A stretch of DNA of 64,000 nucleotides from an uncultured Christensenellaceae bacterium (GCA_910587005.1 CAJULB010000003.1:103725-167724), one strand, 5' to 3'. Shown: positions 15,361 through 29,751, counted from the stretch's first letter. Numbers and translations: made by a program. The notes: generated by a model from the letters alone, not told the origin.

Positions 15361-16494
15361 ATGATAGACCAGAAGTTCGATGAAGTATTTACATACGAAG
15401 CGCTGTATCAGGCGCATATGCGGGGAAGGCTTGCCAAGCGCGATAAAAAGCCACTTGTGCGGTTCGAGAATGCAATGCTCGGCAATCTGTACAACGTGTA
15501 CATAAAACTGCAAAACGGCACCTTCAAGCTTCGCGGTTACAATCATTTTACCGTGTTCGAGCCTAAGCGGCGCGAAATTCAGACTTTGCACTATTCCGAC
15601 AGGGTCGTCCAGCACGTTCTGTGCGACGACGTGCTTGCGCCGTACTTCACAAAGCGCACCGTTATTGATAACGCGGTCTGTCAGAAGGGCAAGGGCAGTC
15701 ACTTCGCCCTCCGCAGGTTCGAGAATATGCTTCACGGCTACATACGCACGCACGGCGCCGACGGCTATATCTTAAAATGCGACATTTTAAAATATTTTCC
15801 GACCATTCCGCACGAAAGGCTGAAAAAAATTTTTTGTGCGGAAATCCGCGACGAGCGCATAAAACAGCTTCTGAATATGATAATCGACAGCTACCATACA
15901 GATATTGTCTATCTGGAACGCTACGGCGTTAAACCGCTCGCCGACGACTCCGGCAAAACCGGCAGGGGCATACCGATAGGCAACCAGACGAGCCAGGTTT
16001 TCGGACTGTTTTATCTGAACGAGGTTGACCGCTTCGTCAAGGAAAAACTGCGCGTAAAAATTTATTCGCGGTATATGGACGACTTTGTGCTTGTTCACGA
16101 AAGTAAAGAATTTTTGCAGAGCGCTTTAAAACAGCTGACCGGGCTTGTGCACAATCTCGGGCTGGAATTTAATTCCAAAACGCAGATTTTCCCGCTTAAA
16201 AACGGGGTAACATACCTCGGTTTCCGCTATCACGTCACGCCGAGCGGAAAAGTTGTAAAAACCGTAAAAAAGAAAACGAAAAGGCGTTTGCGCTGGCGGG
16301 CAAAGCTCTTAAAAAAAGCCGCGATAGAGGGCTTAATCACTCCCGAGCGCGTTCAGCAGTCGCTTGCGGCTTTCCACGGACATCTGAAACATTCAAAGGG
16401 ATACAGACTTGAAAAAGAGATTTTTGCAAAGCTCAGCGCCTACGCGGTGACTGAAAACGTTAAAAACGGCGGGCTTATCAAAAAACGACGCTGA
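15361..16494 (+). CDS. DGR-type reverse transcriptase
   Basis: RT domains with 'GIPIGNQTSQVFGLFYL' (the DGR-typical [IV]GxxxSQ motif) and the catalytic 'YMDDFVL'. 377 aa, with no maturase or endonuclease domain. Confidence 0.9.
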   Translation: MIDQKFDEVFTYEALYQAHMRGRLAKRDKKPLVRFENAMLGNLYNVYIKLQNGTFKLRGYNHFTVFEPKRREIQTLHYSDRVVQHVLCDDVLAPYFTKRTVIDNAVCQKGKGSHFALRRFENMLHGYIRTHGADGYILKCDILKYFPTIPHERLKKIFCAEIRDERIKQLLNMIIDSYHTDIVYLERYGVKPLADDSGKTGRGIPIGNQTSQVFGLFYLNEVDRFVKEKLRVKIYSRYMDDFVLVHESKEFLQSALKQLTGLVHNLGLEFNSKTQIFPLKNGVTYLGFRYHVTPSGKVVKTVKKKTKRRLRWRAKLLKKAAIEGLITPERVQQSLAAFHGHLKHSKGYRLEKEIFAKLSAYAVTENVKNGGLIKKRR

Positions 16495-16608
16495 CGTTAA
16501 TTTACGTGCCGTTATGGCGCGATTAATAAAAAAGCGATTAAAAAAAGCGTTTAATAAAAAAAAGGGGCATAGGGAAAGGAAAAAATAAATGTACAACAAG
16601 GAGAAACC

Positions 16609-17103
16609 ATGCAGGAAGAAGAACAGCTTTCACTGCAAATGCTGGAAAAAGAAATCCAGCAAGAGCTTAACATGCCCGAAGCGGTCGGACTGACCGACCC
16701 GTCCGCGGCAACGCGCAAAGCGTACCGCATAAACGATTTCGATAACCCGCGCGATAAAGAAATGGCGGTGTTCACCCACGCGAAAAAACTTAGCGAATAC
16801 ATTTTTGTAATCACTGAAAAATCCCCGAAAAAATACCGATGGAGCATAATAAGCCGATTGCAGAACGCCTCGGTAGAGCTTGTTGAAAACCTCTACCGCG
16901 CAAATTTCGAGCGTGACGAAGCCGTCCGCGTAAGCTTTCAGAAAGCGGCGGCGGTGTGCATAAAGCTGATTGATTTTTATGCAGAAACCGCGCGCAAAAA
17001 GCAAGCGATAACCGTCAGACAGACGGGCGTGCTTGCAAAACACATAGCCGAAACCGAAAAACTTTTAAACGGCTGGGTGCGCAGCACCAAACGCAAAATG
17101 TAA
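16609..17103 (+). CDS. avd: Avd-like accessory variability determinant (four-helix-bundle protein) with an acidic N-terminal extension of about 50 aa
   Basis: Helical core 'MAVFTHAKKLSEYIFVITEKSPKKYRWSI...' and basic tail 'LLNGWVRSTKRKM' resemble the Bordetella phage Avd / TIGR02436-type proteins. AAGGAG RBS 6 nt upstream of the ATG. Confidence 0.8.
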   Translation: MQEEEQLSLQMLEKEIQQELNMPEAVGLTDPSAATRKAYRINDFDNPRDKEMAVFTHAKKLSEYIFVITEKSPKKYRWSIISRLQNASVELVENLYRANFERDEAVRVSFQKAAAVCIKLIDFYAETARKKQAITVRQTGVLAKHIAETEKLLNGWVRSTKRKM

Positions 17104-17221
17104 ATTTCATCAAACAAAGCTCGGCGCGGCTCAACTGTAAATAAAGCAACTGCAAAACAAGCAAAACAGCAAATTTCACAGTAAAAAAACCGTACCGTAA
17201 CTTTCAGGGCGGAAGCTTAAT

Positions 17222-17343
17222 ATCTTCCTGGCTGCGCTCCGGCAACAATAACAATGCTAACAATGCCAATGCACTGTCAGCCTCAGGTAACAATACCTGG
17301 ACCACTGTTTCGTCCGTCGCTGCTGTCCGCCCCGCGCTTCACT
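17222..17343 (+). repeat. DGR template repeat TR1 (cognate of the VR in this window)
   Basis: 122 bp matching 20496..20617. There are 10 mismatches, all at TR adenines. In the VR frame it reads SWLRSG-NNNNANNANALSASGNNTWT-TVSSVAAVRPALH, rich in AAC/AAT codons. It is not part of any ORF. Confidence 0.92.
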
Positions 17344-17479
17344 CGCTTGCCAAAAAACGCTTGTCAAACACAACTTAATCAAACAAAGCTCGGCGCGGTC
17401 TGACTGTAAATAAAGCAAAACTGCAAATTTCACAGTGAAAAAAACCGCACCGTAACTTTCAGGGCGGAAGTCTGCTTAT

Positions 17480-17601
17480 ACTTCCTGGCTGCGCTCCGGC
17501 AACAATAACAATGCGAACAATGCCAATGCTCTGTCAGCCTCGGGCAATAACAACGGTTCTACTGTTTCGTCCGTCGCTGCTGTCCGCCCCGCGCTTCAAC
17601 T
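17480..17601 (+). repeat. DGR template repeat TR2 (no cognate VR in this window)
   Basis: Same 5' (CTTCCTGGCTGCGCTCCGGC) and 3' (ACTGTTTCGTCCGTCGCTGCTGTCCGCCCCGCGCTTCA) arms as TR1 and the VR. The 20-codon core reads NNNNANNANALSASGNNNGS. It differs from the VR at non-A positions (e.g. GCG vs GCT, GGTTCT vs TGGACC). Confidence 0.8.
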
Positions 17602-17776
17602 CGCTTGCCAAAAAACGATTGTGAAAAGCAATTGTCTGAAAACAGATTGCCCAAACATTAAACGACAAAGCTCGGCAAGGCTTCGGTAAAACTTTTGCTA
17701 ACACAGTTATGACTTACAAGAAATAACTACCCCAACTACCGAAGCCGCGCCGTAACTTTCAGGGCGGAAGCTTAAT

Positions 17777-17898
17777 ATCTTCCTGGCTGCGCTCCGGCAA
17801 CACAAACAACGCGAGCAATGCAAACTTTCTGACAGCCTCGGGCAACAATAACAATACGACTGTTTCGTCCGTCGCTGCTGTCCGCCCCGCGCTTCACT
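17777..17898 (+). repeat. DGR template repeat TR3 (no cognate VR in this window)
   Basis: 122 bp with the same arms. The 20-codon core reads NTNNASNANFLTASGNNNNT. It differs from the VR at several non-A positions. Confidence 0.8.
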
Positions 17899-18176
17899 CG
17901 CTTGCATACAAAAGACAAGGCAAGTTTTCCGGTATTCTGCACGTCTAAGGACTGCCGAACAGAAAAGATTTGAGAATGAAGGGGGCTTCCGTCCTGCCTG
18001 CGCTTAAAAAGCAACGCTTTAAAAGCAAAGGCGAAACCTGCTCAACCTTGACCCAACGGCTTCGGCTGAAACAAACCGTCGCATTTGGTTCATTAGCATG
18101 CTTGCATGCGGTTGAGCATTTTTTTATGCAATTTTTTTGCCGAGATGTTCGGCTGTACTGTTTTTATAGGTGAACG

Positions 18177-18207
18177 CCCCCCGACCGCGCGTTGCGCGGT
18201 CGGGGGG
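18177..18207. other. Perfect 14-bp GC-rich hairpin with a 3-nt loop
   Basis: CCCCCCGACCGCGC-GTT-GCGCGGTCGGGGGG, with all 14 pairs Watson-Crick. No T-run follows. It lies between the TR array and the G-rich repeat. Confidence 0.7.
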
Positions 18208-18230
18208 CTATCTTAATGGGGGGCAGGGGG

Positions 18231-18357
18231 TAAGCCACCCCCCTTAGTCCCCCCGCCGAGGGCAGGGGGTAGGTATTGGACAATCTCCGCCGAGGGCAGG
18301 GGGTAATAATGCGGTAAAAATCCCCCGCCTGGGCGGGGGAATAAAAGGGGGTGGGAT
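18231..18357. repeat. G/C-rich composite repeat, left copy (flanks the DUF559 gene)
   Basis: Modules: TAAGCCACCCCCCTTAGTCCCC, then CCGCCGAGGGCAGGGGGTA (x2), then the TCCCCCGCCTGGGCGGGGG palindrome, then AATAAAAGGGGGTGGGAT. A direct repeat of 18769..18896. Confidence 0.85.
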
Positions 18358-18384
18358 AAATTCCAACAAAATTATTCAGTGTAT

Positions 18385-18729
18385 TTAAATGTTTAAATGG
18401 CTGTAAATATCGGCGCAGACAGATTTAAATTCTGAATTTACTTGTCGGTTAGAGTACCTCAAAACGGTATAACCCAAAGAATTAAGAAAATTATCCCTTT
18501 CAACGTCTTTTTCCGCGTGTCCGTCCCAATAATGTTGAGAACCGTCAAGTTCGATAATCAGTTTTTGTTTCGGACAGCAAAAGTCCACAATGTAATTTTC
18601 TATAACTTTCTGCCGCCAAAACCTTACAGGCAGTTTATTCAGGAATTGAAACCAAAGTTTTTTTTCTTCTTTGGTTTGATTACTACGCAGTACGCGTGAG
18701 TTTTTAAGCATATTTGAGTTTAGCTTCAT
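18385..18729 (-). CDS. DUF559 endonuclease-domain protein (Vsr-like fold)
   Basis: 'LRSNQTKEEKKLWFQFLN...YIVDFCCPKQKLIIELDGSQH...D..RDNFLNSLGYTVLRYSN' is the typical DUF559 pattern. Start trimmed to the ATG at 18729, because the track ORF extends into the G-rich repeat. Confidence 0.75.
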   Translation of the reverse strand: MKLNSNMLKNSRVLRSNQTKEEKKLWFQFLNKLPVRFWRQKVIENYIVDFCCPKQKLIIELDGSQHYWDGHAEKDVERDNFLNSLGYTVLRYSNRQVNSEFKSVCADIYSHLNI

Positions 18730-18768
18730 AGCAAAAGTATAACATTTATTTGTTTTAAATGCAAGTGT

Positions 18769-18896
18769 TAAGCCACCCCCCTTAGTCCCCCCGCCGAGGG
18801 CAGGGGGTAATAATGCGGTAAAAATCCCCCGCCTGGGCGGGAACAACACTACAACAAAATCCCCCGCCTGGGCGGGGGAATAAAAGGGGGTGGGAT
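18769..18896. repeat. G/C-rich composite repeat, right copy
   Basis: Same modules as 18231..18357, but here the CCCCCGCCTGGGCGGG palindrome module is duplicated instead of the CCGCCGAGGGCAGGGGGTA module. Confidence 0.85.
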
Positions 18897-18953
18897 TAGT
18901 GCAATTTTTCTGTTAAAAAGTAACAAAAAGAAATCGCGTAAAATTAAAAAAAA

Positions 18954-18980
18954 GTTCGCCTATTAATATGATAGGCGAAC
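18954..18980. repeat. Left 27-bp inverted repeat (self-palindromic arms), followed by a T7 run
   Basis: GTTCGCCTAT-TAATATG-ATAGGCGAAC. It is the exact reverse complement of 19132..19158, preceded by an A-run and followed by TTTTTTT. Confidence 0.9.
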
Positions 18981-19090
18981 TTTTTTTGTCGAACTTTGTC
19001 GAACAAAATTCACAAAACTACAAAAAAGGGTTAAAAATTGACAAATTATCATAAAATAGTATGGAAATATGAGAAATTTTTTAAAATTTG

Positions 19091-19119
19091 TTGACATAAT
19101 TTACAAATAGTGATAGTAT
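19091..19119 (+). promoter_or_regulatory. Candidate sigma-A promoter of the giant DGR-target gene, located between the two inverted repeats
   Basis: TTGACA (19091-19096), 17-nt spacer, TAGTAT (19114-19119), pointing toward the ATG at 19213. Confidence 0.5.
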
Positions 19120-19131
19120 ACGGGTACAAAA

Positions 19132-19158
19132 GTTCGCCTATCATATTAATAGGCGAAC
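19132..19158. repeat. Right 27-bp inverted repeat
   Basis: GTTCGCCTAT-CATATTA-ATAGGCGAAC. The arms match the left copy and the 7-nt centre is reverse-complemented. Confidence 0.9.
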
Positions 19159-19212
19159 ATTTGGTGCATAAAAAATTTAAAAATTGTTATAAAAAAAGGT
19201 AGGGTTTTTGGT

Positions 19213-22200
19213 ATGACAATACACAAGAAGGGGCAGGCGAAAAATAGCCGTTTTTACGCTATTTTTCACCGAAAAGCGACAAAAATCGGCACTTTATTTG
19301 CAACATTCGCGTTGAGCATTGCGTGCTTGACGGGCACGCTTTTGCCGTCGAAAACATCAAACGCAATGCAGGGCGGTGTTACTTATTCACAAATAGGTGA
19401 AATCTGGAATGACACGCGCAACCGCTTCAACTCGGCAGAGCTTACAAAGCTGTTCAATCAGCTTGCCGGCAGTGACTACACGGCGGCGACAAAACCGAAA
19501 GACGCGCTTGAAAACATCAAAACGCGTTTAAACCTTGACAGCAGTAAAAACGACTCTTACGGCACTAAGGCAATCAACGAAACGGCGGCAAACCATTATA
19601 ACCACCAGCTCACGTCAAACCAAATCCGTTTAAAAAACGGCGGTAAAGACATAGTTGTGGAGTTCGGCGGGCTTGAATGGACGGTAACATATCTGTCCTA
19701 CACAAAAACGGGCGAACCGATTGCCACGCTTTGGCTTGCCAACCCGCTTGGCACCAGCCGTTGGTCGGACTACTGGTACACTAAGTACACTACCACCAAC
19801 ATGACAAAGCAGTCCAACCTGTACGGTCAAAGCTATATCCGTTCGGAAACGTTAAACGCAGGCTCTCGCTATACCACGGTTGCGGGCGCTTCGGCAAGCA
19901 GTGTAAAGACGGATATAACCTCGGACGCAAGCGTTCAGTGGGTGGAAAACCAAAAGAGTTACGACAACCCTTTTGCAAAATTCACTATTAATAATAAGGA
20001 AACGGCTTACGACAACTCCGGCAACAACCCGCAGAAGTTCAAAGGCAGTTTAACCGAATTCCTTGCAACCCCGCGCGAGGTAAGCTGGCAGGAGGACCAA
20101 AGCTGGTCGGTATTCGGCAACCTCGACTATTCGTTGGGTAACGACAGCTGGGACGACCCTTACGTTATCGCCAACGGCGTAAGCGGAAACGGCGCGGTCG
20201 CTTCAACGTTCAACTACTACAATGCAGGCAACGGCGACTTCCGCCGTGCGTACGGCAGAACCACCGACAGCGACGGTGACGGATACGGCGACGGTCAGGT
20301 TTACAACGGCGCAGGCAAGTACAAAATTCAGTACACTGACTGGGCGGACGACTATGTATGGCTTCCTTCCTTAACAGAAACCGGCTACCAGAATAACGCA
20401 GGCACTTCAAAGTCCACGGTAGGCGGTGTTTGGTACCCTTCACAGGCACAGCGTAAATGCTTCGGCGGTACTAACGACGGTTTCAGCAGTTCCGACTCTT
20501 CCTGGCTGCGCTCCGGCGACTCTCTCAATGCTAACAATGCCCATGCACTGTCAGCCTCAGGTTACCCTACCTGGACCACTGTTTCGTCCGTCGCTGCTGT
20601 CCGCCCCGCGCTTCACTTAAATCTCGAATCTGCCGCTTCAGCGGCAAGGGGCATTGACGTACCCGAAGAGATTGAAACCGAAACCGCAAAAACGTACAGC
20701 GGTACGGCAATTGCAAGCCTGCAATATATCGACCTGACGAAAAGCGAAATCAGCAAGGTTGAATTAACAAAAACAGATAACAAAGGCAATCCAACTACGT
20801 CAACATTGACCGCGGGCGAATACTCGGTTACGGACGGCGTGTTTTATGCTACCAACGCGGGCAAATACAAGGTTACGTTCACAATAAAAAATCAAGCAAA
20901 CAAATGGGACGGTAGTACGGTTGACCCCGACACAGGGGTACCGATACACCCGACCGACCCCGACCAGCCCGTAATATACTGGGAAATTCTGGATTTGCCG
21001 GACGGTTACACACCGCAAGGCTCGTCCGACCTGCGATTGCAGGACCAGACGATAGAGTTTGAAATAGCCAAAGCCGAAACCGTTCTGTCCGACGTAAGGA
21101 GGACCGAAACCGCTCAGCTTTATACGGGCGGAGCGTTGCCTCCGCTGACCTGCACCACGTCGGTAAACGGCGCGGTAACTTTGGACAGCGACCAGACGCT
21201 TGACCACGAGGCTACGCTGTACAACTGGACGTTCCTGCCCTCCGGCGCGGACCAGTACAACTATAAACAGAAAACGGGCACCATAACGCTGAACGTTAAA
21301 AAACCGCTTTTGAAAACGCTGACCGCAACCTTTGACGCGGACGCATACAAAAGCGCGCTTGAAGCGGGCACGGCTTTACCGATATATTCCTCAACCCCGA
21401 TTGCAAATATCAAAGCTATAATAAGCAGTTTTGTAACCATTTCGGGTAAAAAAGAGGACGGAAACGCTTACACGTTGCCTATATATTATAATATTGATTA
21501 TAACGCAACCGACAAGCTGAACGGCAAACTGCAATACGGCACAACAAGCGTTGTGGCAAGCTATCAGGACGCGGATATGCTTGCGGAAGGCGTTGAAGCC
21601 GTTAAGTGCGATATCGAGGGGATACCCGTTATCGCCGTTGAAATGACGGGCATTACGCTTAACACCACATACAAAAACGTTTACAACGCGTACGATACGT
21701 TCGATACGACCGATTTGGTGGTTACGGCAACCTTTAACGATAATTCCACAAAGGTTATATCCTCTGCCGATTATACGGTTGAGTATGTTGACAGCACGCG
21801 CAGTAAGCTTTGGGCAAGCGACGGTTACGTTACCGTTAAGTACGTTTACAACGCCGAAAACGGCAAAGAGAATACCGACAGCAAAACCGCGTCGGTTACG
21901 GTAAACAAAATTAACTTTACGGGACTTACGTTTGAAAACAGCACCGTGCCTTACGACGGTGAAAACCACGCTATAACCGTAGGCGGAACGTTCGACCCCG
22001 ACAAAATGACAGCGGTTTACGCATATGCGGGCGCAGTAGGCAGCGGCAGGGTTAACGTGGGCGATTATACCGTTTCGGTTTCGCTTACGTTCACCGATAA
22101 CGAGCTTATAACCAACTATCACCCCGTAACCCTTGCGGACGTTACCCTTAAAATTACCGCGGTTGACTACGACGACCTTACTTCGCTTACGTTCAACAAC

Positions 22201-25200
22201 GTTTCGGCGGAGTTTATAGGGCAGTCGCTTGCTTCGGCTATAACCGCTTCGGGTATGCCTGCGGGCGTTACCGCAACATACACGTTTGCCGACAGCGAGG
22301 GCAACCCCGTTTCCTCGGCGGACGTTATAAACGCGGGTTCTTATACCGTTACCGCTAAGTTTAAGGTTGATAGCAACCACAACGCCATCCCCGACAAAAC
22401 GGCGGTATTGACGGTTACTCCCAAAACCATATTAATAAACAATTTAAGCGGAATTAATTCCGAATACACCTACGCGGGCAGTGCGTGGAGCAACCCCGCG
22501 CCTATATTGAAGGTTACGCTCGGCACGGACGCAACCGCAACAAATCTTGTAGCCGATACCGACTACACCGTAACTTATACGGTTACTGCTGGTACCGCGG
22601 GCAAGGCGGGCGCAACCGTTCTTGTTACCGTTACGGGTAAGGGCAACTACAAGGGTACGGTTACAAAATCGTTCTCAATCAAAAAAGCTACGCTTAATCT
22701 TACCTGGAACGCGGGTTCGCCCCAGTATGACGGAAACCCCCACGGCGCAACGCTTGAAGTAACGGGCGGAGTGCAGGCGGGCGACGAAAGCATTACAACC
22801 TCGGCTTTGGGCGCGCTTATCAGCGTTACCTATACTAAGGACGGAGCTACGGTAAGCGGAGTGCCCTCGGCAATGGGTATTTATACGCCTGCGTTCACCA
22901 ACTTCCCGACGAGCGAGCCGTATTCCAACTACGACTACGTTATAACCAACGTAGGATATAAGTATGAAATAACCGCGGCGGTTATTTCGGGAATTACTTT
23001 CGACGATTTATCCGTTGAATTCAACGGCAAAAACCAGACCATAGAAATCACCGCGTCAAGCGCGCTCCCCGCGGACGTTACCCCCGTATATTACTACAAG
23101 GGCACGTCAAACCTGTTCACGGGCGCAACCAACGCGGGAACGTATGAAGTTACCGTTAAGTTTGTAAGTGCAAGCGGAAACTACGCCGCGCCCGCGGATA
23201 TGGACGCAGTGCTTACAATCACGGCAAAGACGATTGCGGATATAAACGTAAGCAATATCAACAGCGAGTACGTTTATAAGGGCGAAGCGTGGAAGCCTTT
23301 GCCCGCGGTTGCCGTTGCTTTGGGTACGGATACCACGGCTACAACCCTTGCAAAGGACAGAGATTACACCGTTGCATACAGCACGGAGGATTATTCGGCG
23401 GGCACGACGGTTACTGTCACCGTTGAGGGTATAGGCAATTACAGCGGTACCGTTACCGTTGCGTTTGAAATTAAAAAGGCGACTTTGGGCGTTGATTTTA
23501 TCGGCACAGATAAAACTTACGTCTACAACGGCGTTGCGCAGGGCGTTACGGCGGTGTTCACGGGCGTTGCCGAAAGCGATAAGGACACTGTTGTGCCTAC
23601 AATCGTTTACGAAAGTGCGGACGGAACAACTTACCCCGCAAACGCAAATCTGCCCAAAAACGCAGGCAGTTACGTTATTAAAGTAACGCTTGACGCAACC
23701 TTCGCAAACTACGAAAGCTTTGCTGAAATTTCAGAAACGTTCGATATCGAAAAGGCAACCCCTGTAGTTCACGTTGCTTTCGATACCTATAATCCCGATA
23801 CCGACCGCATTTTTGCAGGCGGCGACCTGCCCGCGCTTAAAGTGGTTTCGGCAGTGTTCGGAAGCGTAACCGTAACCGGTACGGTTGACTGGCAGTTAGT
23901 TGACGGCGTTAAACCGCTTTTAACCACAGCGCTTACCGATTACGTTTGGGAATTTGTGCCTGCGGGCGACGACGCGGTTAACTTCAATAACTATACGGGC
24001 AAAATTCAGCTTTACGGCGAAGTGCCCGGTATTGCGGGTATTACCGTAGAGTGGAGGGCGGACGTACCTGCTCCCACGATTTACACGTCTACCTCGCTTG
24101 ACGATTTAAGAAAATATATTATCGTGCGCGCTACGCTGGACAACGGCAAACCCGCGGACGGTGAGATTACCGATTACACCCTTAAAGGCAACTGGGGCGC
24201 TGGCGTTAAGCCTGTTGACAACGTTACCGCAGACTATAACTTAACCGTAATTTCGGCAAACGGCAAATCCGCCGAGCTGGAAAACGTTAAGTATTACAAG
24301 GTTGAGCTTATCGGGCTTGACGTTGTGGCTTCGGACGCAGACGCAGGTATTAAATTAACCTACGCCGCGCTTACGAAGTTCGATAAGTCGAGCATTTCGG
24401 TCATAGCTTTGTATAACGACGGTAGCCGTGTTACTGACATTACCGATTACGAAATCAAATATCCCGTGGAGGGAGAGGACGTTCTTTGGGCGGGCAACAC
24501 TTACGTTACCGTATCCTATAAGGACGGCACCGTTGCAACCGCTAAGGAGTTTATAATTAACGGTTTAACGGTTAATTCGGTTAATTACGACCTTACGGAC
24601 GTTAAGTTTGCGGATACCTCCGTACCCTATGACGGTAACGAACATTCCGTTGTTGTTACGGGCTTGCCAGCAAGCGGTATGAAGCTTGAATACACTTACA
24701 ACGGTACGGCTCTGCCCGACGGCGTTAACGGTATGGTTGACGCGGGCAAGTACACGGTAAGCGTTAAGATTACCTTCACGGACAATAAATATATCGTTAA
24801 CTACAACGCGATTGTTTTAAGCGATATTACCCTCACGGTCGAAAAAATCGACTACGACGGAGTTGGCGATATTACGTTTGACGACGTTGCCGTTGATTAT
24901 AACGGCAGTGCGCGCGCAGACGAAATTGTTGCGGGCAATGTTCCCGCGGAAGTGGTTGCGCTGGGCGTAACTTACAAGTACGAGAAAGTCGGCGCAGACG
25001 GAACTTTGACCGAGTGCTCCGCGGAAGACGTAATTAACGCGGGCGAGTACAAGGTTACCGTTTCGTTCACGGTAGATAAAAACCATAAGGACATTCCCGC
25101 GGTTACCAAAACGCTTACTATTAACAAAATCGACCCCACTATTAACCCTACGGTTATCAGGGCGATTACGGGACAGCTTCTTATCGGCGCACAGCTTATT

Positions 25201-28200
25201 TCCGCCGACGGAGATACCCCCGGTAAGTACGAATGGATTAACCCCGACCATACTTTGGCAAACACCAACAACGAACAGTACAGATTTACCCCGACCGATA
25301 CGGTAAACTATAACGTTGTAACGAAAAATATCGTGTTTGCAGCGGAAACCAAGGTTTTACAGACTATCCGCGTAATATTTACGCAGGGCGATACAAAGCT
25401 TTACACCTCGTACACGATTGAAGACGTTAAAAAGCTTATCGACGAAGGTAAAATAAGCATACAGGTTATAGGCGTATATACAGACGGTTATAACGCTACC
25501 GAGGAAAATATTTCGGCAGGCTACGAGCTGTCCTTGCCCGACGGTGCAACGCATCTTACCGAGGGCGAGTGCCATATCAGCGTCAAGTACCAGCATGTTA
25601 CTAATTCCGACCGCTATCTTACGGTTACAAAAACCGAACTTGAAAGCATTACCCCCGTATTCGACCAGAAGGGCGTGCCTGTATACAGCACTCCCGACGA
25701 TATAGAAACGCTTAAAGCGCTTATCGCGGCGGGCACAGTTTCCCTCACGGTTACGGGTACCAACAACGACGGTAAAACCGCTACCGAGCCTTTCACCTAC
25801 ACAATTTCGGGCGACTGGTCAGGCATGACGGCGGACGGTAAGTTTGCTGTTACCGTTACGGTTGACGGAACAAGCATTTCAAATACCTTCGAAGTTGAAA
25901 TTACGCTTGCGGCAATAGCTTCAATTAAAGCGGAATTTGACCAGAAGGACGCGAAAATCTTCACTTCAACCGATTTGGACGGATTTAAACAGCTGCTTGC
26001 AAACGGCGAAGTTTCGCTTACCGTAAAGGCTTATTACAACAACGGCAAAAACGTTGAAATCAACCTTGCAACGGATACTTCCGACGGTTACACGCTTGCG
26101 CTTTCGACTGCTAATTTCGAAGTAGGCGGACTTGTAAACGTAAGCTATACGGTAAACGGCACGTCGTTCCCCGCATCGTTCGCAGTTGACGTTACGGAAG
26201 TGGAGGTAGTAAGCGTAAGCGCAACCGTTAAAGCCGGCTTCACCGTTTACACCGATACTACACTTGCAAACCTTAAAGACAATATACTTGCAACTGCTTA
26301 CCGCAACGACGGAACAAGCTTCGACGTACCCGCGGCAGACTTCTCGATTTCCCTGCCTGACGGAGAAACCAAGCTTACGGCAGGCGCGCAGAAAGTCGTA
26401 CTCGTCACATATAACGGTTCCGACAAATCTGCCGACTGCGCGGACTTCGGTCTTATTACCGGCGTAACCAAGCACGCAACCCAGATATACTATAACGGCA
26501 AGACCGAATTCACTTATACGGGCAGCGAGCAGGTTATCAACAGCGGAGCAACTACAACCAACACTCAGAGCCCGACGATTAAATATACAATCGGCGGAGC
26601 GGACGCTAAATTTACGGACGTACCCGCAAGCGGCGAGCTTGTTCTTAAAATCGAAGCGGCTGAAACCGACGATTACTTTGCGGCTGAAATTACTCTTACG
26701 ATAACCGTAAGCAAAGCCGACATAGATATGTCTGCGGTTGACTTCGACGACGTTGAATACAAGTATGACGGAACCGATAAGAGCATAACCGTTGATACAA
26801 GCAAGCTTCCTGCCGGCGTTACCGTAAGCGGTTATGAATATCTCGACACTTCGGACGGTACAACGCTTTCAACTTCAAGCGTATCTGCGGCGGGCGTGTA
26901 CAAAGTAACGGTTAAATTCACCGTTACCGATACCGACAACTACAATCTTGTAGCCAACAAAACCGCAACGCTTACAATCAAAAAAGCGGACTACGATATG
27001 ACCGGCGTTACCTTTAACGGCGATACGGTTACATATGACGGCAGCACGCATACCCTTTCGGTTGACGCAAGCAGTCTTCCCTCGGGCGTAACCGTTAAGG
27101 AATACGTTTACACCAACAAGGCGACGGGTGTTAAAGTAACCGATACCGGCGTTGCAAACGCAGGCGAATATACCGTTTCGGTAAGCTTCAACGTAGCTGA
27201 CGCAGTAAACAATAACGCAGTAGCCGATATGACCGCAACGCTTACTATAAACAAGGCGCAGACGGTTATAGATACTTCCGCAATTGTAACCGATTACACC
27301 TACGACGGACTTTCGCACACTGTAAGCGGCGCAACGCTTACCGCAGGCGAAACGGGCGCGGTTATACTGTATTCTTCAAACAGCACGTTTACCGACGTTC
27401 CCTCGGGCGGCAAGCTCACCGTTACCGTGTACGTTAACGACAGCACCAACTATATCGGCGCTTCGGCAACGGTTGAAATAACGGTTAGAAAAGCTTCTCT
27501 TACGATTACAGCGAAGGATAAGACGATATTCTACGGCGACGCACCCGCAAACGACGGAATTAACGAGCCTGTCGGCTTTGTTAACGGCGAAACCGTTGCA
27601 AACCTTAAAGGCAACGCAACATATTCTTACGATTATGCTAAGGGCGGCAACGTTGGCGATTACGTTATTACGGTAAGCGGATTTACTTCTGCAAACTATG
27701 ATATAACCTACGTTACAGGCACCCTTCACGTACTGCAAAAGACTGTTGCGGTTGAATGGACTTCACAGACCTATACGTTCGACGGAAACGGCCACGCTCC
27801 CACGGCTTCGTTTACGGGCATCGGCGGCGACAAAATCGCTATGACCGTAACGGTGGAAGAAAAGGGCGGTTCTGCCGTAACAGGCTTGCCCGTCAACGCT
27901 TCAACCTATGTTGCAACGGCGGCTTCGACCAACGCAAACTATAAGTTTACCGGCGAAACCAAGGAATTTACCATTAATCCCGCGGATATAAGAGTTACGG
28001 GCACGGGCGACCAGTTCTACCTCAGCGGCGGCAGTAAGGACATTACTATTGACGCGGCGGAAAACGGCAAATACGTGTACGTAATACTTCAGGGCAATGT
28101 TACGGGCGCAACGTTCGAGTACAGCCAGGCGCACAACACCTCGTCTGCATATCCCTCTCCCGAGGGGGAACACTCGTTCACAACCTCCAAACCCGTTATA

Positions 28201-29751
28201 ACGGCGGCGGGCAGATACGTTGTAAATTACAGAATAACTGCTCCCAACCATAACGTTTATCTCGGACAGTGGACGGTTGAAGTTACTGACGATACCGAAA
28301 AATCAATAACCATAACCTTCAAAAAACCCTATACCGTTGAGTTCGGCAAGGTGCCCGAAAGCAAGGATGAGCTTGCAAAGCTTGCCGAAGAGCTTTACGA
28401 CGGCGGATATATAACCGTTGACGGACTTGACAGAGAAGAGTTCCTTAAAGTTATGGAACTGCGTTTGAAAGTAGATAATTCCACCGACGTAACGACGGGA
28501 ACAGACGTAGGCAGATACACTCCTTATTTCGAAATCGGCGATGTGTTCGAACCCGTTTACGGCGGTTACGTAATCTTCTACAAGACCGAAAACACGGCGG
28601 AAAACTCCAACATCGGCAAGTTTGAAATTAAGCAGAAAGAGCTCAGCATTACATGGGACAGCATAGGCTTCGTAGCAGACGGTACGTTGCATCTTCCCAC
28701 GGCAACCATAGGCGGATTTAATGACGGTACAACCGCAACGCTTGAACTTGACAGCGCGGCGGGCAAAACGTTCAGAATCGAAGCCGACGGTAAAACAATC
28801 AATGTAACAATCGGCGTACACGGCGACTTAATCAGCGCCGGCGGACATACGCTTGTAGTCAGTGTAGACGACGATAACTATACAATCGACGTTCCTATGA
28901 CCACCGTTTCCATAACGGCGCCCATTAAGCTTGAAGTTAAATGGGAAAATACAAGCTTTGTATACGACGGCGAATCGCATCTTCCCAAAGCTTTGATAAG
29001 CGGTTTTGCTGGCGGTAAAACGTTTGAATTTGCTTTGCAGACAGCGGAAGGCGGCAGCTATTCGTTTGAAAACAACGGCACAACCATTACTTTCACAGTA
29101 ACGGTTGCGGGTTCAGGCAACGTATTTACGGACGTAGGCGTTTATAGAGTTACCGTTTCGTCAAACAGCGCTAACTATGTAATAAGCAATCCCGACACCC
29201 AGATATCGATAACGGCTCCCAGAAAACTTGTTGTAACGTGGAACCAGACGGTATTTGATGAGGACGGAACACAGCACTTCCCCAAAGCTTTGATAAGCGG
29301 ATTTAACGAAAGCGACCCCGTAGCTATCGAACTTAAAGCGGTAAGCGGCGGCGTGTTCACGGTAGAGGTAGACGGTAAAAGCGTAACCTTTACTGTAAAC
29401 GTTGCAGGTATAGGCAATATTCTTAAAGACGCGGGCAACTATAACGTTTCGCTCACGGTTAACAGCAAAGATTACGTTATCGATAACGCTGACGTTACCA
29501 TGACGGTAAGGGCGCTTGTCGGTGGCGAAGTCGAAGGCAAGCTTTCCAAGCCCTGGCTTATAGGTCTGATTATTGCGCTCGGCGTGCTGTTCATAATGAT
29601 TATAATTGCTTATATCGTTGCGGCTAAGCGCAAACCCAAGCTTGTCGGCGCTATCGACGAAGGCGGTTTCAGCGAACCGTATATGCAGTCTTTGGACTAT
29701 ATGGAAGCTGCACCGTCGGACGACGATGACGACGAAGAAGAGGATGAGTAA
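19213..29751 (+). CDS. Giant (3512 aa) cell-surface protein and DGR target
   Basis: Domain order: signal/anchor-like N-terminus, a variable lectin-like head, Ig-like (Big_3-type) and MBG/'YDG' repeats, then a C-terminal TM anchor and acidic tail. N-terminal hydrophobic segment 'IGTLFATFALSIACLTGTLL'. Head module ends 'SSWLRSG...VRPALHLNL'. Dozens of ~80-100-aa repeats carry 'V.YDG..H', 'AG.Y.VTV', 'NY......ATLTI.KA'. One classic MBG unit: 'FYGDAPA...GDYVITVSGFTSANYDITYVTGTLHV'. C-terminus 'PWLIGLIIALGVLFIMIIIAYIVAAKRKPK...DDDDDEEEDE'. No LPXTG motif seen. Confidence 0.9.
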   Translation: MTIHKKGQAKNSRFYAIFHRKATKIGTLFATFALSIACLTGTLLPSKTSNAMQGGVTYSQIGEIWNDTRNRFNSAELTKLFNQLAGSDYTAATKPKDALENIKTRLNLDSSKNDSYGTKAINETAANHYNHQLTSNQIRLKNGGKDIVVEFGGLEWTVTYLSYTKTGEPIATLWLANPLGTSRWSDYWYTKYTTTNMTKQSNLYGQSYIRSETLNAGSRYTTVAGASASSVKTDITSDASVQWVENQKSYDNPFAKFTINNKETAYDNSGNNPQKFKGSLTEFLATPREVSWQEDQSWSVFGNLDYSLGNDSWDDPYVIANGVSGNGAVASTFNYYNAGNGDFRRAYGRTTDSDGDGYGDGQVYNGAGKYKIQYTDWADDYVWLPSLTETGYQNNAGTSKSTVGGVWYPSQAQRKCFGGTNDGFSSSDSSWLRSGDSLNANNAHALSASGYPTWTTVSSVAAVRPALHLNLESAASAARGIDVPEEIETETAKTYSGTAIASLQYIDLTKSEISKVELTKTDNKGNPTTSTLTAGEYSVTDGVFYATNAGKYKVTFTIKNQANKWDGSTVDPDTGVPIHPTDPDQPVIYWEILDLPDGYTPQGSSDLRLQDQTIEFEIAKAETVLSDVRRTETAQLYTGGALPPLTCTTSVNGAVTLDSDQTLDHEATLYNWTFLPSGADQYNYKQKTGTITLNVKKPLLKTLTATFDADAYKSALEAGTALPIYSSTPIANIKAIISSFVTISGKKEDGNAYTLPIYYNIDYNATDKLNGKLQYGTTSVVASYQDADMLAEGVEAVKCDIEGIPVIAVEMTGITLNTTYKNVYNAYDTFDTTDLVVTATFNDNSTKVISSADYTVEYVDSTRSKLWASDGYVTVKYVYNAENGKENTDSKTASVTVNKINFTGLTFENSTVPYDGENHAITVGGTFDPDKMTAVYAYAGAVGSGRVNVGDYTVSVSLTFTDNELITNYHPVTLADVTLKITAVDYDDLTSLTFNNVSAEFIGQSLASAITASGMPAGVTATYTFADSEGNPVSSADVINAGSYTVTAKFKVDSNHNAIPDKTAVLTVTPKTILINNLSGINSEYTYAGSAWSNPAPILKVTLGTDATATNLVADTDYTVTYTVTAGTAGKAGATVLVTVTGKGNYKGTVTKSFSIKKATLNLTWNAGSPQYDGNPHGATLEVTGGVQAGDESITTSALGALISVTYTKDGATVSGVPSAMGIYTPAFTNFPTSEPYSNYDYVITNVGYKYEITAAVISGITFDDLSVEFNGKNQTIEITASSALPADVTPVYYYKGTSNLFTGATNAGTYEVTVKFVSASGNYAAPADMDAVLTITAKTIADINVSNINSEYVYKGEAWKPLPAVAVALGTDTTATTLAKDRDYTVAYSTEDYSAGTTVTVTVEGIGNYSGTVTVAFEIKKATLGVDFIGTDKTYVYNGVAQGVTAVFTGVAESDKDTVVPTIVYESADGTTYPANANLPKNAGSYVIKVTLDATFANYESFAEISETFDIEKATPVVHVAFDTYNPDTDRIFAGGDLPALKVVSAVFGSVTVTGTVDWQLVDGVKPLLTTALTDYVWEFVPAGDDAVNFNNYTGKIQLYGEVPGIAGITVEWRADVPAPTIYTSTSLDDLRKYIIVRATLDNGKPADGEITDYTLKGNWGAGVKPVDNVTADYNLTVISANGKSAELENVKYYKVELIGLDVVASDADAGIKLTYAALTKFDKSSISVIALYNDGSRVTDITDYEIKYPVEGEDVLWAGNTYVTVSYKDGTVATAKEFIINGLTVNSVNYDLTDVKFADTSVPYDGNEHSVVVTGLPASGMKLEYTYNGTALPDGVNGMVDAGKYTVSVKITFTDNKYIVNYNAIVLSDITLTVEKIDYDGVGDITFDDVAVDYNGSARADEIVAGNVPAEVVALGVTYKYEKVGADGTLTECSAEDVINAGEYKVTVSFTVDKNHKDIPAVTKTLTINKIDPTINPTVIRAITGQLLIGAQLISADGDTPGKYEWINPDHTLANTNNEQYRFTPTDTVNYNVVTKNIVFAAETKVLQTIRVIFTQGDTKLYTSYTIEDVKKLIDEGKISIQVIGVYTDGYNATEENISAGYELSLPDGATHLTEGECHISVKYQHVTNSDRYLTVTKTELESITPVFDQKGVPVYSTPDDIETLKALIAAGTVSLTVTGTNNDGKTATEPFTYTISGDWSGMTADGKFAVTVTVDGTSISNTFEVEITLAAIASIKAEFDQKDAKIFTSTDLDGFKQLLANGEVSLTVKAYYNNGKNVEINLATDTSDGYTLALSTANFEVGGLVNVSYTVNGTSFPASFAVDVTEVEVVSVSATVKAGFTVYTDTTLANLKDNILATAYRNDGTSFDVPAADFSISLPDGETKLTAGAQKVVLVTYNGSDKSADCADFGLITGVTKHATQIYYNGKTEFTYTGSEQVINSGATTTNTQSPTIKYTIGGADAKFTDVPASGELVLKIEAAETDDYFAAEITLTITVSKADIDMSAVDFDDVEYKYDGTDKSITVDTSKLPAGVTVSGYEYLDTSDGTTLSTSSVSAAGVYKVTVKFTVTDTDNYNLVANKTATLTIKKADYDMTGVTFNGDTVTYDGSTHTLSVDASSLPSGVTVKEYVYTNKATGVKVTDTGVANAGEYTVSVSFNVADAVNNNAVADMTATLTINKAQTVIDTSAIVTDYTYDGLSHTVSGATLTAGETGAVILYSSNSTFTDVPSGGKLTVTVYVNDSTNYIGASATVEITVRKASLTITAKDKTIFYGDAPANDGINEPVGFVNGETVANLKGNATYSYDYAKGGNVGDYVITVSGFTSANYDITYVTGTLHVLQKTVAVEWTSQTYTFDGNGHAPTASFTGIGGDKIAMTVTVEEKGGSAVTGLPVNASTYVATAASTNANYKFTGETKEFTINPADIRVTGTGDQFYLSGGSKDITIDAAENGKYVYVILQGNVTGATFEYSQAHNTSSAYPSPEGEHSFTTSKPVITAAGRYVVNYRITAPNHNVYLGQWTVEVTDDTEKSITITFKKPYTVEFGKVPESKDELAKLAEELYDGGYITVDGLDREEFLKVMELRLKVDNSTDVTTGTDVGRYTPYFEIGDVFEPVYGGYVIFYKTENTAENSNIGKFEIKQKELSITWDSIGFVADGTLHLPTATIGGFNDGTTATLELDSAAGKTFRIEADGKTINVTIGVHGDLISAGGHTLVVSVDDDNYTIDVPMTTVSITAPIKLEVKWENTSFVYDGESHLPKALISGFAGGKTFEFALQTAEGGSYSFENNGTTITFTVTVAGSGNVFTDVGVYRVTVSSNSANYVISNPDTQISITAPRKLVVTWNQTVFDEDGTQHFPKALISGFNESDPVAIELKAVSGGVFTVEVDGKSVTFTVNVAGIGNILKDAGNYNVSLTVNSKDYVIDNADVTMTVRALVGGEVEGKLSKPWLIGLIIALGVLFIMIIIAYIVAAKRKPKLVGAIDEGGFSEPYMQSLDYMEAAPSDDDDDEEEDE
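20496..20617 (+). repeat. DGR variable repeat (VR), codons ~428-469 of the giant ORF
   Basis: Matches TR1 except at positions where TR1 has A. It encodes SWLRSG-DSLNANNAHALSASGYPTWT-TVSSVAAVRPALH. Confidence 0.92.
20631..20646 (+). other. Short GC hairpin 14 nt downstream of the VR (candidate DGR target-recognition hairpin/cruciform)
   Basis: TGCCGC-TTCA-GCGGCA: a 6-bp stem with a 4-nt loop, inside the coding sequence immediately after TR/VR homology ends. Confidence 0.5.

Follow-up and report, generated by a model that had tools for sequence, protein, structure and literature searches.

A 151-bp promoter segment found in both orientations, very probably a tyrosine-recombinase inverton, upstream of a giant surface-protein gene targeted by a diversity-generating retroelement

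Results

We analysed a 64-kb stretch of DNA from an uncultured Christensenellaceae bacterium (the window; all coordinates are those of the whole window, counted from its first letter). A 151-bp promoter segment lies there between two 27-bp inverted repeats (IR-L and IR-R), upstream of a gene for a 3512-aa surface protein that is also the target of an adjacent diversity-generating retroelement (DGR). An earlier note on this sequence had proposed that the repeats bracket an invertible promoter. In a further assembly from this species we found the segment reversed, with flanks that are collinear with those of the window. A tyrosine recombinase gene lies in the same assembly as the window's locus, beside a second pair of identical sites. 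These results suggest that the element is very probably a tyrosine-recombinase promoter inverton, which stands in its ON orientation in the window. The parts of the element are as follows.

18954-18980, no strand assigned: IR-L, putative left recombination site; arm GTTCGCCTAT, 7-bp spacer TAATATG, arm ATAGGCGAAC
18981-19131, plus strand: invertible segment, 151 bp, ON orientation in the window, promoter toward the giant gene
19132-19158, no strand assigned: IR-R, putative right recombination site; arm GTTCGCCTAT, spacer CATATTA, arm ATAGGCGAAC
19213-29751, plus strand: regulated gene, 3512-aa surface protein with MBG_2 repeats; ATG at 19213

As the earlier note had stated, IR-L and IR-R are exact reverse complements over 27 bp, and each copy is itself a palindrome with 10-bp arms. 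The arms surround an asymmetric 7-bp spacer (a 10-7-10 layout), and the inverted repeat reaches 35 nt at 97% identity. Because the spacer is asymmetric, IR-L and IR-R have a defined and opposite polarity. When up to three mismatches were allowed, the pattern occurred at only these two places in the 64 kb and in none of 100 shuffles.

The window's segment occurs in both orientations

Orientations were compared between consensus metagenome assembly contigs. An exact 27-mer metagenome scan gave four loci, including L016, and more contigs were found by exact-protein look-up of neighbouring genes. The look-up of the neighbouring DUF559 protein identified L056 (GCA_948739355.1), which is from the window's species and is collinear with window positions 15385-21729. 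Its interior is reverse-complemented at 151 of 151 positions and its outer flanks are unchanged; the 213-bp repeat-to-repeat piece matches window 19162-18950 in reverse at 99.1%. The two orientations can be told apart at the junction, where IR-L is followed either by TTTTTTTGTCGAAC or, as in L056, by TTTTGTACCCGTATAC. The window (ON) orientation was found in L014, L017-L023, L058, L059 and L061, and also in L060 at its junction.

Conservation of the sites and of the promoter

Orthologous elements are present in two other species (L001 and L007). IR-L and IR-R are 100% conserved in both of them, the interior is 86.8% identical to the window in L001 and 75.5% in L007, and the left flank is 67.5% identical in each. 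Complete conservation of the repeats, where the interior is at 75-87% and the left flank at 67%, indicates that the putative recombination sites are under selection. Further conserved blocks are an A-run by IR-L, TTTTTTTGTCGAA...TGTCGAAC just inside IR-L, GTTGAC (the -35 box), AGTGATAGTATAC (the extended -10 box), ACAAAA by IR-R and the ribosome-binding region. The promoter and the sequences around it are listed below.

18911-18925, no strand assigned: imperfect palindrome TGTTAAAAAGTAACA, 28 bp outside IR-L; TGTTAAAAATTAACA-like in L001, L007 and L004
18946-18953, no strand assigned: A8 tract next to the outer end of IR-L; read on the minus strand, it places U8 after the IR-L hairpin
18981-18987: T7 tract inside IR-L
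18985-19004, plus strand: direct repeat TTTGTCGAAC, two copies just inside IR-L; conserved in L001 and L007, partly in L047 and L049
19091-19119, plus strand: predicted promoter (sequence match); -35 TTGACA (19091-19096), TG (19111-19112), -10 TAGTAT (19114-19119), 17-bp spacing
19126-19212, plus strand: predicted ON-state 5' untranslated region (UTR), its start placed from the -10 position; ribosome-binding site (RBS) AAAGGTAGGG at 19195-19204

The promoter, TTGACA-17-TGnTAGTAT, is of the sigma-70 type and is the best consensus match in 17000-20000 (10/12), in agreement with the choice made in the earlier note. GTTGAC and AGTGATAGTATAC stand out as conserved blocks, the rest of the interior being 75-87% identical, the UTR and RBS are likewise kept across the orthologous elements, and an extended -10 box, GTGATAGTAT, is common to the window and to the DGR-linked invertons L047, L049 and L052-55. 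These observations support a promoter inside the segment that would drive the giant gene in one orientation only. The A8 and T7 tracts and the ATG at 19213 are likewise where the note had placed them. A second TTGACA is present at 19038-19043 as the note had said, but we rejected it as a promoter element, as it is not conserved in the orthologous elements of the two other species.

The direct repeat TTTGTCGAAC resembles the arm end GGCGAAC; it is kept in the type-A elements described below and is missing from type B. Its possible roles are that of an additional half-site for the recombinase or that of an element which biases orientation, for example toward ON in the type-A switch. In every related inverton examined, 5-8 A form a run at, or close to, the outer end of the gene-distal repeat, and no such run is on the gene side; in L049 the run is interrupted by TT.

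Invertons of both types also have a conserved TGTTAAAAATTAACA-like palindrome some 28-50 bp beyond the repeat that is farther from the regulated gene (the window; L001, L004, L007, L008 and L011). It could be an accessory or regulator site.

The same sites at other loci

The pattern GTTCGCCTAT-N7-ATAGGCGAAC was scanned in one genome for each of 185,579 species. Pairs with exactly the window's spacers, 177-178 bp apart, were found in three metagenome-assembled genomes (MAGs), labelled Candidatus Borkfalkiaceae bacterium or uncultured Christensenella sp., with 2-3 pairs per genome. In this survey the window's spacer variant was always paired, and each pair preceded a giant surface-protein gene. 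A dispersed palindrome of the REP (repetitive extragenic palindromic) or MITE (miniature inverted-repeat transposable element) kind was rejected on these grounds; the genome-wide single copies beside unrelated genes that such an element would show, a scenario raised in the earlier note, did not appear.

Collinsella, a soil Bacillota genome and one viral contig contain the pattern as single copies, with spacers other than the window's and within longer palindromes. In L002, L009 and L012 (Collinsella and the viral contig, whose match is identical to the Collinsella locus), the same 10-bp arms occur once, with spacer TGCAAAT, in a longer palindrome ATATGG...CCATAT. No recombinase was found near these three copies, and they are probably unrelated operators or hairpins.

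The paired sites fall into two types. Type A comprises the orthologues of the window's locus, L001 and L007. These match the window in their giant gene (which starts MTIHKKG or MTLHKKG), in the promoter boxes and in orientation. Type B has a different 151-bp interior with its own promoter, TTGACA-17-TAAAAT, and precedes gene X, which starts MFWSSLKAKGKL; the product of gene X is 5000-5700 aa long and has YDG and MBG domains.

The type-B segment was seen in both orientations in two species. L011 and L016 are independent assemblies of essentially one strain, with flanks 100% and 99.96% identical over 4670 and 2822 bp, and their 207-bp repeat-to-repeat piece is 100% identical in reverse. Among assemblies of the window's species, seven (L027-30 and L033-35) have the type-B promoter directed away from gene X and two (L031 and L032) have it directed toward the gene, with flanks that are identical between the orientations.

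The states of both invertons are known in four assemblies (L017/L028, L020/L034, L022/L030 and L060/L029), and in each of them type A is ON and type B OFF, possibly a sign that expression is coordinated or mutually exclusive. Separately, in L039, L042, L043 and L045 the inner arm of the left type-B site has A in place of G (ATAAGCGAAC). In 4/4 contigs with this variant the promoter faces away from gene X, so the variant may be phase-locked.

In MGBC136074, the DGR cassette lies beside a type-B-like inverton (L004), and the type-A module lies beside a gene that, judged from its translation, is glycyl-tRNA synthetase-like (L007). The inverton and its gene thus move as a block.

A tyrosine recombinase and its matched sites

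The type-B inverton of L016 starts 66 bp past the stop codon of a gene for a 302-aa recombinase, which is transcribed toward the inverton; in the window's species this distance is 145-434 bp. The protein has Phage_integrase (PF00589, E = 8e-28) and Phage_int_SAM_3 (PF14659) domains. Among solved structures, Tn1549 Int (6EN0, E = 6e-18) is the nearest to it and Xer-type proteins come next. The LR, HxxRH, GH and Y motifs of its catalytic R..HxxR..H..Y set align with those of Tn1549 Int, and the predicted catalytic tyrosine is the Y of LNRYAH. Other classes were tried and rejected: a FimB/FimE-type DNA invertase (NCBIfam PRK09871, 22.4 bits vs a cutoff of 222), a Xer protein (no NCBIfam Xer model reaches its cutoff) and a serine invertase of the Hin/Gin/Mpi kind (the associated gene encodes a tyrosine recombinase, and the site has an odd length of 27 bp with a 7-bp spacer). 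By the NCBIfam cutoffs the recombinase is thus neither FimB/E-type nor Xer, and it belongs to an uncharacterised clade.

The earlier note had observed that no recombinase gene lies in the window, and this was borne out: tblastn found no homologue of the associated recombinase in the window, and the 10 suitably sized open reading frames (ORFs) that were scanned contain no recombinase domain. An assembly with the window's locus (GCA_948943085.1, L017/L057) carries the recombinase on another contig (L028). As the gene is on another contig and none is in the window, the recombinase would act on the window's element in trans. We consider it likely, from adjacency and matched sites, that a recombinase of this type (P0006) is the enzyme that flips the window's element.

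The recombinase has about 8000 homologues. Related recombinases, 49-66% identical, adjoin 10-7-10 site pairs, or sit a DGR cassette away from them, in eight lineages. Identities below are to the recombinase of L016, and sites are written arm-spacer-arm.

P0015 (L047), 66%: GTTCATCTAT-TAGCATA-ATAGATGAAC
P0027 (L049), 60%: GCACATCTAT-TAAGCTA-ATAGATGTGC
P0038 (L052-55), 59%: GTACATCTAT-TAGTATG-ATAGATGTAC
P0050 (L066, L067), 58%: GTTCGCCTAT-TGTTTTA-ATAGATGAAC
P0116 (L071), 58%: CTACATAGAA-TATTCTA-ATCTATGTAA
P0064 (L068-70), 57%: GAACATCTAT-CTGTTTA-ATAGATGTAC
L003, ~50%: GTTCGCCTAT-TATAGTA-ATAGGCGAAC
L006, 49%: GTTCGCCTAT-TATGCGA-ATAGGCGAAC and GTTCACCTAT-TGCTTTA-ATAGGCGAAC (partner copies partly resolved)

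Every lineage has its own spacer, most have changed arms, and in every pair found the two spacers are reverse complements. The cleanest pairs, with matching changes in the two arms, are those of L047 and L052-55, the right copy of L047 having one arm mismatch. One copy is imperfect in L003, L049 and L066, and partner copies are degenerate in L066 and L068-70. Some sites are mixed: L066 keeps one arm unchanged, and L003 has the window's arms in one copy. The inner CTAT/ATAG is kept in all tabulated sites except those of L071. In loxP and FRT, the sites of simple tyrosine recombinases, the enzyme binds to the arms and crossover takes place in the spacer. The pattern of change seen here is as expected if the arms and spacer had these roles. 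Inversion was also seen in the P0038 lineage, where the interior of L055 is inverted relative to L052-54 between flanks that are collinear at ~98%.

The genes downstream of these invertons differ. The inverton that follows the recombinase precedes leucine-rich repeat (LRR) surface proteins in P0050 and P0116, and a Band_7/TIR/trypsin/MACPF operon in P0064. In L003 the inverton precedes an operon that opens with a likely signal peptidase (read from the translation rather than from a Pfam scan), and in L006 a gene with a type I restriction-modification methylase-like N-terminus (read from the DNA, again rather than from a Pfam scan). Because the invertons of these relatives precede both surface and defence genes, we suggest that the recombinase clade is a general invertase for such loci that has been recruited repeatedly by DGR cassettes.

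The regulated gene and the DGR

The 3512-aa protein has an N-terminal signal or anchor, MBG_2 repeats and a C-terminal transmembrane segment. Its gene contains the variable repeat (VR) of the DGR, whose reverse transcriptase (RT), accessory gene and template repeats (TRs) lie upstream of the inverton.

15361-16494, plus strand: RT (Pfam RVT_1)
16609-17103, plus strand: bAvd (Pfam bAvd)
17223-17343, 17481-17598 and 17778-17898, plus strand: template repeats TR1, TR2 and TR3
18385-18729, minus strand: DUF559 endonuclease-like gene, between the TRs and the inverton
20497-20617: VR of the giant gene, in DUF6273-like surroundings

TR1 and the VR differ at nine positions, all of them TR adenines, which shows that the giant gene is a genuine DGR target. 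Thus both parts of the combination suggested in the earlier note, ON/OFF switching and DGR hypervariation of one gene, have counterparts here, in the inversion seen in L056 and in these adenine-specific differences.

The window's DGR has three different TRs and one VR, in the giant gene (gene A); four TR copies are present in L004, from another species. Compared over 17227-17341, 17484-17598 and 17782-17896 (TRs) and 20501-20615 (VR), the VR is TR1-like in the window, L018 and L020, TR2-like in L019 and L056, and TR3-like in L021 and L022. As the VR derives from different TRs between assemblies of the same species, alternative templates seem to write one target. In the first ~5 kb of gene X, we found no VR of this DGR.

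Three of the eight more distant lineages (P0015, P0027 and P0038) have the recombinase, RT, bAvd, TRs, inverton and giant target gene in this order. No inverton was found between the recombinase and the RT in these DGR-linked relatives; the RT has its own fixed promoter-like site. The recombinase and the DGR cassette have been separated in the window's species.

Alternative explanations

Several points weigh against reading the element as a recombinase-driven switch. The window's element is OFF in 1 of ~12 assemblies only, so it may have a strong bias toward ON. The two orientations are known from comparison between assemblies; phase variation in one population, and any rate of switching, are inferred from it. 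The assignment of the recombinase is based on its adjacency to the sites and its co-change with them, and that of the promoter on its consensus match and conservation. Last, positions 12140-12193 of L024 join the type-A left flank and IR-L to 27 nt of type-B interior, after which the contig ends. This junction may reflect recombination between identical sites of two loci, which would be a large chromosomal rearrangement, or it may be an assembly-graph artefact.

The comparison of consensus assemblies, and the single sighting of the window's OFF state, leave some room for rare accidental homologous recombination between short repeats that became fixed in some lineages and is not a reversible switch. 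We consider this very unlikely. Repeats of 27-35 bp are poor substrates for RecA, and both orientations occur among strains 98-100% identical at four locus/species sets. Additionally, the sites are perfectly conserved beside diverging neighbours, and a dedicated recombinase travels with them.

Even less probable is that the repeats act only as RNA hairpins, with IR-L as a bidirectional intrinsic terminator, IR-R as a 5' UTR stem and their complementarity incidental. Folding does allow for such structures. A terminator scan called IR-L with its A8/T7 tracts on the minus strand (17 pairs), and modelled OFF-state RNA through IR-L folds at -18.2 kcal/mol (z = -7.2) and then enters a U-run. Plus-strand IR-L RNA folds at -23.6 kcal/mol, and the bare hairpin at -13.3 kcal/mol. 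The IR-R hairpin (-13.3 kcal/mol) begins ~6 nt from the predicted 5' end and is followed in RNA by AUUUGG, with no U-run; the whole UTR has z = -3.9. However, hairpins leave unexplained the inversion, the identical sites at unrelated loci, the pairing with a recombinase and the reverse-complementary asymmetric spacers. The terminator and the 5' hairpin, which the earlier note had listed as competing readings, are compatible with the inverton as secondary roles and do not rival it. That an OFF-state terminator at IR-L is real, on top of recombination, seems to us possible if somewhat doubtful.

The note had also raised paired operators for a dimeric transcription factor that would loop ~178 bp without programmed inversion. 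Each copy is indeed a perfect 10-bp-arm palindrome, the copies are 178 bp apart, and the conserved TGTTAAAAATTAACA-like palindrome is present upstream. Nevertheless, we regard this reading as extremely improbable: the segment is inverted at the window's locus and at three related sets of loci, paired spacers are always reverse complements, which is not required of operators, and the gene consistently beside the sites encodes a tyrosine recombinase, not a helix-turn-helix regulator. With both orientations found, looping is not needed. Finally, although these are metagenome assemblies and some contigs break at or near the element (L024 and L060), assembly artefacts caused by the inverted repeats merit practically no credence as the source of the alternative orientations, because the repeats (27-35 bp) are shorter than the reads and the assemblers' final k-mers, so that real k-mers should cover the junctions, which makes misassembly very unlikely, and because the inverted copies come from separate projects and assemblers (NCBI MAGs, ENA SPAdes and MEGAHIT contigs, and JGI).

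Discussion

Based on these comparisons, we propose a model in which a tyrosine recombinase encoded elsewhere in the genome operates the window's element as a promoter inverton. Each 27-bp repeat would be a complete lox-like core site, in which the 10-bp arms bind the recombinase and cleavage and crossover occur within the 7-bp spacer. As the two sites are inverted, strand exchange would flip the 151-bp segment between them.

The second part of our model addresses the two states. In the ON state, as in the window, the promoter would aim at the 3512-aa gene and the transcript would start near 19126, ~6 nt before IR-R. IR-R would form a 5' hairpin, which, having no U-run, would not terminate transcription and may protect the 5' end. 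IR-L with the T7 tract may also act like a terminator (-23.6 kcal/mol) against upstream read-through. In the OFF state, as in L056, the promoter would fire leftward through the IR-L hairpin and U8, where transcription would probably be terminated. Such termination would precede antisense entry into the DUF559 gene and the TR region.

The final part of our model involves other genes. We propose that the same recombinase, through identical sites, switches at least one other giant surface-protein gene, and that the adjacent DGR rewrites the VR of the controlled gene. ON/OFF switching would then be placed on top of hypervariation.

The element is of a well-known kind; what is new is its coupling to a DGR, the regulon of shared sites and the family of matched recombinase/site pairs. 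By layout and function it resembles the RecV switches of Clostridioides difficile (cwpV, flgB and cmrRST), which also turn surface structures ON and OFF in a member of the Bacillota. RecV-flipped segments carry promoters or regulators. There, and in our model here, a single tyrosine recombinase whose gene is distant from most targets inverts several short segments that lie between inverted repeats. Unlike the RecV sites, those described here are complete symmetric 10-7-10 repeats with one sequence at all loci. In addition, the targets here include a giant protein diversified by a DGR, and in relatives the recombinase gene lies within the DGR cassette.

The shared-repeat promoters of Bacteroides fragilis are similar in that several surface loci have the same inverted repeat and one master recombinase. 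In B. fragilis the Mpi serine invertase acts on polysaccharide loci, and Tsr tyrosine recombinases act on surface proteins. The present system differs in phylum and promoter type, in recombinase class when compared with Mpi, and in having 2-3 loci per genome. In Escherichia coli fimS, a tyrosine recombinase (FimB or FimE) likewise inverts a promoter segment before an adhesin gene, but the repeats of fimS are 9 bp long with half-sites beside them, fimS depends on IHF and Lrp, and the recombinase here is outside that family.

In the design of its sites the element is closest to Cre/loxP and FLP/FRT, where two inverted arms surround a 6-8-bp asymmetric spacer that sets direction, and inverted sites lead to inversion. 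As in Cre and FLP, the recombinase consists of core-binding and catalytic domains only. However, the arms here are 10 bp vs 13 bp, the spacer is 7 bp, and no close sequence relationship was detected. Compared with canonical DGRs (that of Bordetella phage BPP-1 and the pilin DGRs of gut Bacteroides), the RT, Avd, TR and adenine-specific TR-VR differences are alike, whereas the invertible target promoter, the three TRs that feed one VR and the syntenic tyrosine recombinase of relatives are not. We found no description of a DGR coupled to an inverton, to an invertible promoter or to phase variation in the literature that we searched, the coverage of which was incomplete; the papers retrieved were reviews or mentioned these topics in unrelated contexts.

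Invertible promoters and DGRs are two major routes of surface variation in gut bacteria, and here they meet on one gene. The host lineage is uncultured and from the mouse gut, and the related genomes are labelled Borkfalkiaceae or Christensenella-like. The locus offers a concrete example in which recombination sites, a candidate recombinase, a promoter and both natural orientations have been identified. It also raises the question of whether a DGR target is mutated while silent and then sampled by switching ON. In addition, arms and spacers that are lineage-specific and change in step with the protein are possibly orthogonal recombinase/site pairs, and they could serve as genetic tools.

A broader idea, which we hold to be rather doubtful, is that in a clade of Clostridia the invertase is an integral third component of the DGR, which would then consist of recombinase, RT, Avd, multiple TRs, inverton and giant target gene. 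Three layers would be stacked on one adhesin, namely ON/OFF inversion, template choice and adenine mutagenesis. One recombinase with identical sites would coordinate 2-3 giant surface proteins, possibly with one ON at a time.

Additional observations

Rfam gathering and tRNA scans of the window found no Rfam family and no tRNA. The DUF559 gene is flanked by C-rich repeats (CCCCCGCC..GGGCGGGGG hairpins) at 18200-18370 and 18770-18900. Its absence from the gene calls of the same-species assemblies L018, L019 and L021-L023 gives it the look of a small mobile insertion. DUF559 genes are also present in the DGR cassettes of L052 and L053. In L007, MAG contig CAJUEV010000007.1 begins with an Illumina adapter (positions 1-47, GACCACCGAGATCTACACTCTTTCCCTACACGACGCTCTTCCGATCT), which is contamination of the record.

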